Assembly (NCBI GenBank): GCA_010093995.1
Contig: ML992531.1
Coordinates: forward strand, 1-63,967
Direction: 5' to 3'
Source: Elsinoe ampelina
Lineage: Eukaryota
Length of the DNA: 63,967 nucleotides
Shown: positions 41,274-54,015 of the stretch, one piece after another
Position numbering within the stretch: the stretch's first letter is position 1
Layout of the letters: the number at the start of each line of letters is the position of its first letter
Notes under the pieces: model-generated
What the model was told of the DNA's origin: nothing
Databases searched by the model: none
The model's input: the letters and a program-made list of their open reading frames with translations, nothing else
Translations under genes and position numbers: made by a program

Positions 41274-42212
41274 ATGGCCAAATTGCTCAAGAAGCCATTG
41301 AAGCTTGCCCTCGTGCAGCTGTCCACAGGTCGGTCGGCCATGCCCATGGGTTACCAGCGCTGACTCTCCTTAGGCGCAGACAAGACGGCCAACCTTGCAC
41401 GAGCAAGATCAAAGGTCCTCGAAGCCACCTCGAAAGGAGCAAAGTTGGTAGTCCTGCCAGAATGCTTCAACTCTCCCTACGGCACCTCGTTCTTCCCAAA
41501 GTACTGCGAAACCCTACTCCCATCACCACCGTCTGAGGAACAGTCTCCAACCTTCCACGCCCTCTCCAAGTTAGCGAAAGAAGCAAATGCATATGTGGTA
41601 GGAGGGAGCATACCAGAATACTGGGAGGAGACCAAGAAGTACTACAACACTTCTCTGACCTTCGGTCCGGACGGGAACCTCCTCGCGACACACAGGAAGG
41701 TTCACCTCTTCGATATCAACATTCCTGGCAAGATCAAGTTCCGGGAAAGTGACGTATTGTCTCCAGGCAACAAAGTCACCATCATTGACCTACCAGAATA
41801 CGGCAAGGTCGCAGTAGCCATCTGCTACGATGTCCGCTTCCCAGAACTCGCGACCATTGCTGCGAGGAAGGATGCATTTCTCCTGCTCTACCCAGGAGCA
41901 TTCAACCTGACCACCGGCGCGCTGCATTGGGAGCTGCAAGCTCGAGCACGAGCTATGGACAATCAGGTCTACGTCGGTCTCTGCTCGCCAGCACGAGATA
42001 TGGAGGCCGAGTACCACGCATGGGGCCACAGCATGATCGTCGATCCCAACGCAGAGATTCTGAGCCAGCTAGAAGAGAAGGAGGACATTGTCTACGCAGA
42101 TCTGAACGGCGAGAGGATAGAAGAAGTGCGAAAGGGCATACCGATATATACGCAGCGACGATTTGACGTCTACCCTGATATCAGCCAGGGGAAGGTCAGA
42201 TACGAGGACTAG
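41274..42212 (+). CDS. NIT3: Nitrilase-family omega-amidase; intron 41329-41373
   Basis: VLPECFNSPYG, HRKVHLFDI, AICYDVRFPE catalytic triad, RARAMDNQ. Confidence 0.93.
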
Positions 42213-42528
42213 AAAAATGATACCCCATTACATCAATCATAGTCCAGCGTCACACCATATAAGAGACCATTCCATCTGCCTGAAACGGTTCAGAACTCCG
42301 ATGGCGAATTGTCGGGAAGGTGCTTTCTCAAGGCCGCCTGCCATGTTTGGTAAGTATATGTCGGTCCTGGACATTACGGACACGCTGCACATTTGTCTCT
42401 GCCACATGTGTTCCGCATATTCTTCGAGGTCACATTGATACCCATCAGACCTCATCATACTCGTTCGCTATCTTTATCGCGACCGATCATCAACTCCCAG
42501 GAAAACTGGCTGGACTTTGCGACCTAGG

Positions 42529-45500
42529 ATGACTTCGAACGAGCGCCGTCATGACAGTCGCCGTACATCAGCATTGTTTCACAATGGCCGAGAGCAAAGA
42601 CTCGAACATATTCGACCTTCGAAGTTGATTCTGAAACGTCCTGCCACAAGACTGCCTTGGCTTGACGGCGGCGCAAGCTCTCGCAGCATCCCAGGTCAAT
42701 TCGGCACCGAGCTCAGCGATCTCACGGAAAGTAATGCATACCCTAGCGGCACGTCCAGCAGCCCAAACTTGCTCGATCGATCGCCTGTCCCGAAGCCACG
42801 CTTGTCCATTGGCAGCCTACCAGACGTACCCGGCTCGTTCACACGAAAGGGTGGAGAGTACACACCTTCGACCTACAGCGGTAAGCACAGAATCGACAAA
42901 GATACCGACAGTCAGCATTCATTGTCAAAGAAGGATGCTGCGTCATACGAAAAACTTGTCGATCGCCCATTTACTCTGCTCGATCGTGCAGAAGCTCCTG
43001 CGATTCCACCAAGGACATCCAGCAGCACCCATGATGTACCAGAGACCGGAGATATCGGCCTCAGTGCCATTCCACGCACGAGAAGCTTCGACGGCAATTT
43101 GTCTTCAGACGCTCCATCTGTCAAGAAACCCTCGCAACAACATCACCGCCGACATGCACCGTCGACTGTATCTCAATTGGCTGTTCCCCGCGCACCCACA
43201 ACCTTGCAGCCAGTGTCGATGCGCGACACCATGTCAAATCTTCGAAGTCTCATGTCAGAAGCGATGAAGGTGGCTGAACAGGCGGAGAGGCAGAACAGGA
43301 CTGAAGACATGTCTGCCATCTTTCGAGAAGCTTCGGTCGCTATGAGAAATGCCAGTCAGGTCAGCGGACAGATGAGAAGTCCTTTAGCGCTTTCCGACAT
43401 CGAGTTGGCTCCGACCAGCGAAGAGTATACTGCGGACTCCAGCTCCGATATTGGATCCGAGTCGTCAGCCTGGGACTCACCCAGGAGAAAGCACATGTCC
43501 AACGAGACTATGCCGACTGAGTACTCGGCCAGTGTACCATCTGTTGGCAGTCCCCGTGTCAGCTCTCCATTTGCCGACCCTTCAAAGAGGCCATCAACAT
43601 CTTTGGGAAGCCAGCTTAAGATCCCGACTATTGCCGACCAGGTATCAGAAGGCGAGATCAGTCCGGGGACAGTACCAGAGAAATCAAAGAGTACTCAACT
43701 AGGTCTTCCGGATGCCCTTCAGAGACTGCATCAACCTCCGTCAGCCGACTCGATCATCATCGACTTTGCCTATGTTGAGCGACAAATTGGCGCGCCGTCT
43801 GGCAACCTTTCGCCGGTGATAAAGTCGAGACCACACCATCGCAACAAAAGCTTGAGACCCAGCGTGCCAGAACGAGACATGGACGTCAACCCCGAGGATG
43901 TCACGCAAGTTCCGATCAGGCCGAAGACCAGCGAAGAACCTGTCCCTGCACTAACGTCTATTCTTCCTGAACCAATATCCGAACCACGAGTAATAAGCGG
44001 TAGCGGTCCCAAGCGTCGAAAGCCACGCAAGGGCAGCACTCGTCGATCGCCCTATTACGAGGTCCCCGATCAGGCCCCCGTTGAGAGGGTACCGACCAAT
44101 CGAGAGACAGTCATCATCCCAGTGCCAGTTCCTGAAGCGCAAGTACCACCACAACAAGTCGTGAACATCACGGTCGGAGGAGGAGATCCTGGAGATAACG
44201 ACAACGTCAACCGAACGAAGAAGCTCAAATACAAGCGGCGACCAATCGCGAGGGAATAGGGAACCCTTCGCAAACGCATCACCGCCATCATTGCGTGCAT
44301 CAACACTGCTCTGATCGGTCTCATTGCTGGCATCTATGCTGGAGAAGTTCCCAAGATCCAGTATCAGCTCGCCGACATGAATCATCGGGTTATCCTCGGT
44401 AACGTCTTCTTCTACATTGGACTCGGAATCAGTACACTGATTGCCTGGCCATTACCATTGCTGCATGGTCGAAAGCCGTACATTCTGGTCGCACTCGCGC
44501 TGACGCTACCACTGCAATTCCCTCAAGCCATTTCTGTCAGCCAATTCCGATCACCAGACAGACGGTGGTATGTCGCTCTACTTCTGCCCAGAGCTGTCAG
44601 CGGACTCGTCTTGGGTTTCGCCAACGTGAACTTTCTGGCGACACTCCTGGACTTGTTCGGCGCATCCTTACAATCTCATCATCCACATCAAGAGATCGTC
44701 ATTTACGATGACATTCGGCGTCAAGGCGGGGGTGTCGGCCAATGGCTCGGTCTGTGGTCGTGGTGCTTTGTTGGGTCACTCGCAGTTGGCTTCCTGATTG
44801 GTGCAGTAATCACAGCCCGCCTACCTCCTGCTTGGGGCTTCTACTTTGTTGTCATCCTTCTGGCTGTCTTTCTGCTCATGAACATTGTGGCACCAGAGAC
44901 TCGGCGCTCGCCACACCGACGATCTATTCTGCATTACTTTGATGAGGAGGACAATCTGCAGCGGAAGATCGCTCGCGGAGAAATCAAGCTCCACTTGGCT
45001 CAGGATGGTCCGAAGTATTGGTGGGAAGAGGTATGGGCAGGGTTGAGGCTGATGCTTTACATGGTATCTCAAGCCGGCTTTGCAATACTGGCGCTATACT
45101 TGGCGTGGATATACGCGCTTGTGGTGCTGGTCACGCTGGTAAGTACCATGTCCGCCACAGTGGAGGTTCCGGTCACTGACAACATTTCAGCTGCTTAGTG
45201 CGCTATTGTCTACAAATTACCTGTGGCGTCCACAATATGTCGGTCTGGGTGTTTTCGCCTTAGCAGTCGGCGCTCTACTGGCAGTACCCCTTACGAGAGC
45301 CAACATGCTGTCTCGCGATCGAGTTGAGCCCGTCAGGACAGACAGCATGACTTTCCAACCCAGAGTGACATGGTCGTCTCATCTTGTACGCCGATGTATC
45401 TTCACTTTTGCCCTGCCACTTGCTGGCCTCGCCTTCACCTTGACCTCGCCCGGCCCAAGTCTCAATTGGGCGGCACCTACCGTCATGAGCGCGCTTGTGG

Positions 45501-46063
45501 GCTTTCTCGCAGTGCTTGCCATTGCTGAATGTGTGGGACTCACCATGGAGACCTACGATACCTGTGATCTCCAACCCGGTGCAAACTCCAAGCACCGTTT
45601 ACAATCTATGGACAGTCAAACCCGCCGACGCCGCACCAACTACTCATGTTTCCCTCGCGTCATTGCAGGCCTCTTCGCCTCTCAAGGACTCGGCTTCTTC
45701 CTCGCCGCCGCAGCCACCGGCGTAAGTGGACGCATCACCCGGGCTCTCGGCGCCCAAGCCGCCGTCGGAGTTGTCGCCGGCATCCTCCTATTCCTCACCA
45801 TCCTTCTCTCGCTCATCCTATGGCGTTTCCGCACAGTTCAAGTCATCCCCAACCACGCATTTGGTACTCGAAAGGGTACGAAGGAATGGACGGCTGACGA
45901 CGACGACAAGTTCTGGAAGCCCGTCATCGTGGGTAATCCGTCTGGAAAGGTCAGGAGGATGAATTTGCTGGAGACGGGCAAGTGGAGCAGGTGGACTGAG
46001 ATAAGGAGGATGAACAAGTTGGTCAAGCCGGGGACGTGGGAGGTGCAGTATGGGAAGAAGTGA
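42529..46063 (+). CDS. Large MFS membrane protein (AMD1-like architecture) with in-frame TAG at 44257-44259; intron 45139-45190; 5' end uncertain
   Basis: ~575-aa disordered N-terminus, then PIARE*GTLRKRITAIIACINTALIG..IYAGEVP, WPLPLLHGRKPY and multiple TM helices; the frame continues across the TAG. Confidence 0.82.
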
Positions 46064-46365
46064 TGTAGTCGGATTTCTGCGGGCCTTAGAGGAGCCTGAG
46101 AATTGATCTATTGACGCTTTACAATGGTGCTCTGCTCTGGTTCTTGCAAATCTAGTCTGCTTTCCTGAAGCCATCCAAAAGTGCGGGCTGCGACTGCCTC
46201 ATGCATGTCGCCTGTATACAATTCCTCAACCATCGAACATGCGCACCCTCTGATACACTACCAAACAATCCTTCCCACGACAGTCCTTACAGAGCAGACT
46301 TTTACAGAGCAGTCATTACAAAACACTCTCCGCCGAATCCTCCACCGAAGCCTCCGCTGAGGAAC

Positions 46366-53887: not shown

Positions 53888-54015
53888 TCTCTGCATGTGC
53901 CATTCCTGCGGCATTCCCAAGAAGGGACAATCTTGAAAAAATCTGTAGATTATGTATCATATAGACAACCTCACATTCCTCCTCCACACAGTCCTTTGTC
54001 TTCCTTCATCTACTG

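Follow-up and report, generated by a model that had tools for sequence, protein, structure and literature searches.

The AMD1-type gene on contig ML992531.1 of Elsinoe ampelina (GCA_010093995.1) raises the question of whether a long reading frame broken by one stop codon, immediately before its membrane domain, is dead or still yields a full-length protein, and in the latter case by which means the stop is overcome. The window analyzed comprises the first 63,967 nt of the contig, and all positions given here are those of its forward strand. A scan for stops with at least 120 open codons on each side returned 12 places in the window, and among these interrupted frames only that with the TAG at 44257-44259 unites two halves of a homologous protein. 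The other 11 look like intron or non-coding contexts on inspection, the TAGs at 53962 and 55150 being judged by eye only.

Gene structure and reality of the stop

The gene occupies positions 42529..46063 on the + strand and contains a single real intron of 52 nt (45139..45190, GTAAGT...CTGAC...CAG, + strand). Counted from the ATG at 42529, whose Met is identical to the start of the annotated protein P0002, the frame comprises 576 + 1 + 583 = 1160 codons; codon 577 is the TAG, which is the sole break in this frame, and no other defect was found. The letters around the stop read CGA CCA ATC GCG AGG GAA TAG GGA ACC CTT CGC, with the A of the TAG at 44258. The stop-to-stop ORFs of the same frame extend over 42439..44259 (ending in ...KYKRRPIARE) and 44260..45198 (beginning with GTLRKRITAIIACINTALIG), and the ORF 45143..46063 carries the protein on beyond the intron. 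Letters, ORFs and hydropathy thus bear out the preliminary description, in which a TAG was said to break a frame of about 1160 codons at about codon 577, just before TM1.

The two sides of the stop differ in character. Codons 1-576 (42529..44256, + strand) encode a soluble, disordered N-terminal half with 69% disorder-promoting residues and a maximum Kyte-Doolittle 19-residue mean of 0.70, in which hydropathy analysis and a Pfam scan detected neither a hydrophobic, membrane-like segment nor a Pfam family. TM1 begins six codons after the TAG, the first hydrophobic segment being residues 7-25 past the stop, and about 11-12 such segments are present in the 583 residues past the stop. These residues are encoded by the remainder of exon 1 (44260..45138, 293 codons, + strand), which carries the first half of an MFS-type membrane domain, and by exon 2 (45191..46063, 290 codons and the stop, + strand), which carries the second half and the conserved C-terminal tail NPSGKVRRMNLLETGKWSRW. 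The likeness of the gene to MFS transporters (PF07690) consists in these segments and in a match of the Pfam profile MFS_1 to residues 593-861 of the read-through translation (E about 1.7e-6 to 1.8e-6); on the exon-1 piece the profile scored 27.5 bits, which is under the Pfam cut-off of 33.4, and the precomputed Pfam assignment of P0002 is PF07690 (PF07690.22). Many relatives are labelled 'polyamine transport protein', which is a database name only.

Contigs from four runs were compared with the window, of which X4 and X6 do not reach the stop. The TAG is read alike in X1, a DNA contig possibly derived from the source sample, and in X3, a spliced contig from a different sample, and a sequencing error at the TAG is ruled out by the agreement of the two. 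The RNA nature of X3 to X5, X9 and X10 was guessed, no RNA run being listed. Contig X3 joins across the GT..AG intron at 45139-45190, which is present in X1, yet it runs through 44206-44259 with 0 differences. Removal of the TAG by an intron in cDNA, named in the preliminary description as an outcome that would refute its reading, was looked for, and the spliced contig was found to retain the TAG, which is therefore kept in mature mRNA in this one sample, as seen in a contig rather than in reads. The public model P0002, by contrast, misses exactly the 18 codons of 44206-44259, treated as a 54-nt in-frame intron (GTCAAC...ATAG, + strand) that encodes VNRTKKLKYKRRPIARE followed by the stop; the segment includes KYKRRPIARE, a conserved motif of relatives. 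The annotated intron hiding the stop is invented. No A-to-G difference was present in X3 across 3.8 kb, and position 44258 reads A, in a contig whose stage is unstated and of a kind that loses minority variants.

Orthology with AMD1 and the tryptophan before TM1

The gene had been proposed to be the orthologue of AMD1 of F. graminearum, and the searches placed it there. BLASTP of P0002 against FGSG_10094 (P0403) gave 48% identity (282/589 residues, E 4e-173) over the whole membrane domain, spanning TM1 to the NPxGKxRRMNxLE tail. HMMER with the Myriangium orthologue against 1.84 billion representatives led to P0162, which represents the Fusarium cluster (E 1.5e-174); a search with the membrane region of P0162 found the cluster containing FGSG_10094 among its matches. 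Elsinoe was represented in the homologue search by one cluster per species. The architecture is that of the AMD1 group: an extended disordered N-terminus precedes an MFS domain that has repeated hydrophobic segments. AMD1/PSC04 (FGSG_10094 = FGRRES_10094 = FG1G45470) and the E. ampelina gene have in common this N-terminus, the MFS-type domain and the conserved C-terminal tail; for FgAMD1, an MFS domain with 11 helices has been described (PMC5496914). Judged by its similarity to FgAMD1, which is of orthology grade, the gene is most probably the E. ampelina orthologue of AMD1.

FgAMD1 is described as a protein of the ascus membrane that functions in the maturation of asci and the discharge of ascospores, reported there for F. 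graminearum only (PMC5496914). In late perithecia, 97% of its transcripts are given as edited from UAG to UGG at the stop codon, and an intact ascus wall and the discharge of spores are reported to require this editing (PMC5496914; PMC10776026, Table S1). FgAMD1 too was mis-annotated with an intron covering its stop (PMC5496914). As in FgAMD1, a single in-frame UAG, masked by a wrong intron, is the only interruption of the ORF in the E. ampelina gene. The two genes differ in class, E. ampelina belonging to the Dothideomycetes and F. graminearum to the Sordariomycetes, and in that the E. ampelina gene is known from sequence alone. They differ also in the position of the stop: unlike the E. ampelina gene, FgAMD1 retains the Trp of PIARDW and carries its UAG far upstream in the disordered N-terminus, at nt 631-633 (PMC5496914), in agreement with the earlier suggestion of an independent stop site. 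Identity of the FgAMD1 'A632' with the PIARDW codon was considered and rejected because FGSG_10094 has W there and the split F. graminearum model P0410 ends after 220 residues.

The motif PIARxW, put forward in the preliminary description, was recovered as PIAR[E/D/N]W, and the TAG (44257..44259, + strand) stands at the position of its Trp, hitting one particular Trp codon out of 22 in the gene. This codon is also the one with stop signatures in other fungi, which, along with the scan of the window, speaks against a chance stop. Trp was found at the TAG column in 267 of the 280 aligned homologues, the nearest species with W there being E. fawcettii, E. australis and Myriangium; at the level of this alignment, Trp is shown to be the ancestral state at codon 577. 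Some homologues belong to more than one of the sets, and a species may be represented by several strains.

The site is not peculiar to Elsinoe, as stop signatures at the PIARxW codon occur in many Hypocreales, namely the F. fujikuroi and F. oxysporum complexes, the F. albosuccineum group, Tolypocladium, Trichoderma virens and others. Ten hypocrealean proteins terminate exactly before the Trp of PIARxW, four of them from the F. fujikuroi complex and ending in ...QPIARD; 22 models have a gap that ends exactly at this Trp, a class of gap larger than any other in the 291 aligned domains, and two read ARD-Y at the Trp site. Codon and annotation symptoms (...PIARD ends, holes and ARD-Y) are the same in those Hypocreales and in E. 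ampelina. Unlike Elsinoe, the Hypocreales belong to a class with known editing machinery, and their stops are deduced from protein models only. In a tree of 294 leaves, at least nine state changes are required, corresponding to eight hypocrealean clades and Elsinoe; six rows classed as 'other', one of which (P0141) has W by eye, were excluded from the tree, and the 96 of 293 proteins in which the first anchor pattern was unmatched were left out of the counts. On these models, the Trp before TM1 is a recurrent stop site, distinct from the published F. graminearum site. A stop at the PIARDW codon of AMD1 orthologues was not found described in the literature search, which leaves room for a publication on it. 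The annotation error is systematic: in at least 24 public models the stop is buried within a fictitious intron, and at least 10 models break off at the stop; models of the F. fujikuroi and F. oxysporum complexes are among those affected.

Constraint past the stop and explanations other than editing

The E. batatas model P0294, a separate accession in the same 90% cluster, has the identical junction of GDNDN with GTLRKR. The acceptor AG of the false intron is the AG of the stop codon, and therefore the E. batatas codon must be NAG. The domain tree pairs E. ampelina with E. batatas as sister species and places E. fawcettii, which has W, as the next branch; the stop is probably common to the two sister species and old. 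Past the stop, the two species are identical at 574 of 581 residues (98.8%), as compared to 485 of 556 (87.2%) in the disordered half before it (Fisher p = 3.5e-16), and the downstream/upstream divergence ratio is 0.09, whereas it is 0.19-0.24 in Elsinoe pairs not sharing the stop. With the stop of E. batatas taken from its protein model, this comparison shows strong purifying selection at the protein level past the stop. In E. australis, the unspliced ORF calls P0296 and P0299 end in ...NP[G/D]RR where other species have RRW, and the NCBI models have RR-Y-G there with 11 residues missing, which suggests a second stop at a different Trp position; the TAG in E. batatas and in E. australis is deduced from protein models and ORF calls, not from DNA. 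A comparison of two E. australis variants gave 31 differences in 591 residues upstream of this second stop and 5 in 468 residues past it (p = 1.2e-4). The hole shared by E. batatas, the conservation of the domain past the stop and the second Trp-position stop of E. australis argue that the stop is bypassed.

Bypass does not by itself mean editing, as constraint past the stop demands translation only and the RNA contig X3 is unedited; UAG readthrough or a suppressor tRNA could supply some full-length protein. We nevertheless regard such a translational bypass as rather unlikely. Both Elsinoe stops fall on Trp positions, that of E. ampelina on an invariant Trp, which is predicted by a G-to-A change repaired by A-to-I editing but not by readthrough. 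Near-cognate decoding of UAG inserts mainly Gln, Tyr or Lys, and a purine after the stop codon favours termination; UAG-GGA-ACC is not known to be a leaky context. A tRNA scan, confined to the 63,967-nt window, found no tRNA genes there.

A decaying or recently broken gene, in which the TAG would be an ordinary nonsense mutation of a rarely sexual fungus that nothing bypasses, would agree equally with the unedited X3 and with the fact that no editing is known in Dothideomycetes. It would not account for the absence of a second defect in 1160 codons, for an intron that is still spliced, for the identical hole in E. batatas or for the higher identity of the two species past the stop than before it; nor would it account for the independent Trp-position stop of E. 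australis, where constraint is likewise retained, and on these grounds decay appears unlikely.

The segment 44206-44259 could alternatively be spliced out in certain tissues, in which case the protein would lack KYKRRPIAREW, in the manner of FgBUD14, for which editing and splicing of a stop-bearing intron are described as coexisting (PMC11156358). It is bounded by GT..AG, is 54 nt long and in frame, and was chosen as an intron in two separately deposited models, those of E. ampelina and E. batatas. Such stage-specific splicing is nonetheless considered very unlikely, given that the segment is kept in X3, which does splice the true intron, that it has a poor donor (GTCAAC) and no visible CTRAC branch site, and that the segment codes for the best-conserved juxtamembrane motif of the family. 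Moreover, the hole of E. australis would, assuming colinearity, be a 33-nt intron, and 33 nt is generally too short for a fungal intron.

Finally, it is highly improbable that the disordered half is one protein and the membrane domain another, made from an internal transcript or start codon: constraint would then persist on both halves and many models of relatives do start nearby, e.g., P0004 (628 aa) and P0053 (606 aa), but these short models begin upstream of the Trp and contain it, the first in-frame Met is located 40 codons past the stop and after TM1, the 39 residues before that Met are identical in E. ampelina and E. batatas, and contig X3 spans both halves as one piece.

A-to-I editing as the proposed bypass and its wider meaning

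We propose sexual-stage A-to-I editing of UAG to UGG as the likeliest bypass of the stop, and consider it moderately probable. Following this proposal, the TAG would have arisen by a G-to-A change in the codon for the invariant Trp of the juxtamembrane PIAREW; the unedited mRNA, which is the form present in the sole RNA contig available, would yield the 576-residue disordered N-terminal half only, and the transporter-like domain would be produced only when the stop is bypassed. During ascus development, deamination of the candidate A44258 would convert UAG to UIG, which would be read as UGG (Trp), so that editing would restore the ancestral residue exactly, as it does in the premature-stop-correction (PSC) genes of Fusarium graminearum, and the stop would act as a gate that prevents production of the membrane domain except in the sexual stage. 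We infer both that the bypass is editing and that it is specific to this stage.

PSC genes are recognized by a TAG from an ancestral TGG in an intact ORF, and this is what the alignment and the otherwise undamaged frame of the E. ampelina gene point to. Further likenesses to PSC genes are the disorder-rich protein and the independent recurrence of the stop at one site, and the presence of the transcript also outside the sexual stage was counted as another, the stage of X3 being unstated; these traits have been described for 71 PSC genes of F. graminearum (PMC10776026). The PSC 'pseudogenes' of Sordariomycetes are reported to be restored by A-to-I editing through Tad2-Tad3-Ame1 (PMC10776026; PMC11087585).

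The preliminary description had also seen a fit of the sequence context to the fungal editing preference. This fit holds for the letters, as the context A-U-[A]-G-G-G-A matches the preference at five of six positions from -2 to +4, the A at -2 being a depleted letter, when scored by the rules of F. graminearum (PMC9600606). As evidence for editing the context is weak, however, because the change from TGG to TAG itself gives the U at -1 and the G at +1 and because hairpin loops are common. The A of the UAG sits in the 10-nt loop AAUAGGGAAC (44255-44264) of a predicted RNA hairpin (44248..44271, + strand) with a 7-bp stem (44248-44254/44265-44271), which folds at -10.7 kcal/mol (z -2.86; 3 of 200 shuffles equally good) and recurs in a 61-nt fold. 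In a control, 44 of the 99 UA sites of the gene were likewise located in predicted hairpin loops, and the hairpin was for this reason downgraded as evidence.

Editing in Elsinoe would explain the Trp-position stops in three of the four Elsinoe species covered here, at two sites in one gene. Published work places the evolution of the Tad3-Ame1 interaction within the Sordariomycetes (PMC11087585; PMC10776026), and neither A. nidulans nor B. cinerea is reported to have shown mRNA editing (PMC11156358); according to two reviews, of 2020 (PMC7306014) and of 2024 (PMC11156358), as far as their treatment of the subject goes, fungal mRNA editing was never examined in Dothideomycetes, and no report of A-to-I mRNA editing in this class was found in the literature searched. 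The odds that a functional stop-correcting A-to-I mRNA editing system operates in Elsinoe (Dothideomycetes, Myriangiales) are, in our judgement, about even; such editing would imply that the machinery is older or wider than a Sordariomycete origin allows, or that it has arisen independently another time, the third.

Taken together, these results indicate that selection continues to act in E. ampelina and E. batatas on an AMD1 gene with a presumed role in the ascus, and therefore that the seldom-seen sexual cycles of these two species matter. If the stop is indeed corrected by editing, the Trp codons of AMD1 would be a convergent target by which the membrane domain is gated to the ascus stage, the proposal of a Sordariomycete origin of the machinery would be challenged, and restorative mRNA editing would reach the largest class of plant-pathogenic ascomycetes.

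The in-frame TAG and its annotation as an intron

The AMD1-type MFS gene at 42529 to 46063 (+) comprises two stop-to-stop ORFs in the same frame, 42439..44259 (+), ending KYKRRPIARE, and 44260..45198 (+), beginning GTLRKRITAIIACINTALIG, the latter joined to a third ORF at 45143..46063 (+) by a true intron of 52 nt at 45139-45190 (+; GTAAGT...CTGAC...CAG). The sequence at the stop reads CCA ATC GCG AGG GAA TAG GGA ACC CTT, and the TAG (44257-44259) is codon 577 of 1160 counted from the ATG at 42529; the preliminary description of a TAG interrupting the frame just before the first membrane helix (TM1) was accurate. The N-terminal 576 residues contain 69% disorder-promoting residues, and a hydrophobic segment and a Pfam family were sought in them and not found. 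In the 583 residues behind the TAG a hydrophobic segment is present already at residues 7-25; their MFS_1 match in a profile scan was weak (27.5 bits, below the cut-off of 33.4), and the precomputed domain of the full public model in its source database is PF07690. Upstream, a carbon-nitrogen hydrolase is encoded at 41364-42212 (+; PF00795, E 1.7e-61). The AMD1-type family member P0029 from Ascochyta lentis bears the name 'Omega-amidase'; this points to a model in which the same pair of neighbours has been fused, and hence to conserved synteny. Two other TAGs, at 53962 and 55150 (+), lie between long one-frame open stretches (297/172 and 177/201 codons); judged by eye, their contexts look non-coding or intronic, and the open stretches may be shadows of a nearby long minus-strand gene.

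The public model P0002, 'hypothetical protein BDZ85DRAFT_286102 [Elsinoe ampelina]' (1142 residues), lacks exactly VNRTKKLKYKRRPIARE and the stop, the latter being hidden by an annotated in-frame 'intron' of 54 nt at 44206-44259 (+; GTCAAC...ATAG). This intron was ruled out, because the segment encodes KYKRRPIARE, a motif common to E. fawcettii, E. australis and Myriangium, and is retained in RNA. The latter was seen when contigs of four public sequencing runs were compared with window positions 42400-46200, those of X4 and X6 missing the stop. The DNA contig of X1, perhaps the source sample, was identical to the window. The X3 contig, from another sample and a run whose RNA origin was a guess, lacks 52 nt bounded by GT..AG (joint 45137/45190); since this joint is absent from X1, the contig comes from spliced RNA. 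From 42400 to 45137 it showed zero differing letters, and so the transcript retains the 54-nt segment, with UAG rather than UGG at the stop. The stop is thus present in mRNA; removal of the TAG by an intron in cDNA, which had been named beforehand as a refuting outcome, was not seen in this contig. As minority variants drop out of contigs, X3 is no proof that editing never occurs. A contig of X6, a run labelled as a different organism from the source runs, matched 43618-43861 at >99% with one differing letter, which indicates that X6 contains an isolate of the same fungus that differs slightly from the sequenced one.

A Trp codon with recurrent stop signatures

The codon 577 column across 280 aligned homologues held Trp in 267, a gap in 11 and misaligned residues in 2, bearing out the PIARxW motif given for this family in the preliminary description; a first anchor-pattern count gave W in 192/197 anchored proteins, 96/293 proteins having no pattern match. 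Six residues ahead of TM1, the motif takes the form PIAR[E/D/N]W, and the near invariance of its Trp points to a G-to-A change in TGG as the origin of the TAG. The proposed link to F. graminearum AMD1 (FGSG_10094; P0403, found in the cluster of P0317) was supported by an alignment that spans 589 residues at 48% identity (E 4e-173) and extends from TM1 through the C-terminal NPxGKxRRMNxLE tail, and by the same layout of a disordered N-terminus followed by a membrane domain. FgAMD1 carries W in PIARDW and its own UAG is placed at nt 631-633 in PMC5496914, so that the Elsinoe stop, at the PIAREW codon, lies at a different place, in line with the suggestion of an independently evolved stop site. 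A split F. graminearum model stops after 220 residues, and its tail is missing from intron-bearing models.

In Hypocreales, where stops were read from protein models rather than DNA, 10 proteins end exactly ahead of the PIARxW Trp: four from F. fujikuroi, F. proliferatum and F. globosum (terminus KSHIRQPIARD), the others from Tolypocladium (3), Ilyonectria, F. nematophilum and one other. A further 22 models have a hole with Trp as the last missing column, the largest gap class of 291 aligned domains, followed by classes of 9 and 6; the holes always open at a Val codon (GT donor) and close at the Trp codon, which must therefore end in AG. Two models read ARD-Y-TALIG, as if a donor were built from the G of TAG and the following T. 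Models ending at, skipping to or splicing out of this Trp (P0415, P0417, P0420, P0426, P0286, P0288-P0292, P0301, P0318, P0323, P0345, P0165, P0312, P0355 and others) imply an unannotated stop at that codon in taxa including the F. fujikuroi and F. oxysporum complexes, Tolypocladium, Ilyonectria, Dactylonectria, Trichoderma virens, T. chlorosporum and Metarhizium album. In a FastTree of 294 domains made without the site's own columns (W 270, stop signature 24), at least 9 state changes were required, namely 8 Hypocrealean clades and Elsinoe; judged from these models, the PIARxW Trp codon is a stop hot-spot in Hypocreales. P0287 (Cladobotryum) ends ahead of a different consensus Trp. P0114 (Lecanosticta acicola) and P0256 begin at a Met directly after the Trp position (MRRKRL..., MRKRF...), and the frame could be broken upstream there too.

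Constraint behind the stop in Elsinoe

The E. batatas protein P0294 has its own accession (locus tag KVT40_007455) and shares with P0002 both a 90% cluster and an identical junction between GDNDN and GTLRKR; going by the protein, its codon must be NAG and is almost certainly TAG. The tree places the two species as sisters, followed by E. fawcettii (W). Between them, 485/556 residues (87.2%) are identical in the disordered half before the stop, as compared to 574/581 (98.8%) in the membrane domain behind it (Fisher p = 3.5e-16), and the 39 residues from the stop to the first in-frame Met are identical. The downstream/upstream divergence ratio was 0.09 for this pair as against 0.19-0.24 in Elsinoe pairs not sharing the stop. 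Sequence that is not translated would be expected to diverge no more slowly than the disordered half, and by this comparison the membrane domain must therefore be translated.

A second Trp-position stop was read from protein models and ORF calls of E. australis: P0296 and P0299 (694 aa) begin at the annotated Met and end SQFRNP[G/D]RR, a point at which the sequence goes on as W-YVALLLP in E. fawcettii, E. ampelina, E. batatas and Myriangium. That these calls are unspliced ORFs is evident from P0297 and P0298, which extend into the true intron; in the NCBI models P0003 and P0295 an 11-residue hole is present and the sequence is RR-Y-G. A comparison of two E. australis variants gave differences at 31/591 residues upstream of the stop but at only 5/468 behind it (p = 1.2e-4). 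The homologous place in the window, ~44560-44575, has a TGG-type Trp (PDRRW-YVALLLP). The two Elsinoe stop sites thus differ, with constraint apparently kept behind both; together, three of the four Elsinoe species seen would have a Trp-position stop in this gene.

Probable editing, its alternatives and the proposed role of the stop

A TGG-derived stop at an invariant Trp, persisting across species ahead of a selected downstream domain, is the signature of restorative UAG-to-UGG editing, as described for 71 F. graminearum genes in PMC10776026, and such editing is probably how the stop is bypassed. The editing-preferred context noted earlier holds in that 5/6 letters at positions -2 to +4 around the A agree with the rules in PMC9600606, and this A is placed within the 10-nt loop of a predicted 7-bp hairpin (-10.7 kcal/mol, z -2.86). 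Both are weak arguments, because U at -1 and G at +1 accompany any TGG-to-TAG change and 44/99 UA sites in the gene are likewise in predicted hairpin loops. Against editing count the unedited X3 contig, a literature search for mRNA editing in Dothideomycetes in which no report was found, the statement in PMC11156358 that no editing was found in A. nidulans and B. cinerea, and the description of the Tad3-Ame1 interaction as a Sordariomycete innovation in PMC11087585. Translational bypass, in which the UAG read in X3 would be passed by the ribosome, is unlikely; constraint behind the stop fits it as it fits editing. Plain decay of the gene, compatible with the same uncorrected transcript, is improbable beside the 98.8% identity of the membrane domain. 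Alternative splicing, as the annotated intron would have it, is very doubtful next to the retained segment, and separate products from the two halves are highly improbable, the 39 residues between the stop and the first in-frame Met being identical.

That PSC (premature-stop-correction) editing exists and operates in AMD1 is already known. New are the stop site itself at the PIARxW Trp, its recurrence across Hypocreales as read from protein models, and its presence in a class for which editing has not been reported, where comparative data support its bypass, the relatives' stops being taken from proteins. FgAMD1 is assigned to the ascus membrane, ascus wall integrity and spore discharge in PMC5496914, and bitunicate asci of Elsinoe are described in PMC8295512. 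Following this, we propose by analogy that the full-length protein would be active in the bitunicate Elsinoe asci, and that the stop may withhold the membrane domain in tissues that transcribe the gene without correcting the stop, which would agree with the trade-off model that PMC10776026 puts forward for PSC genes.
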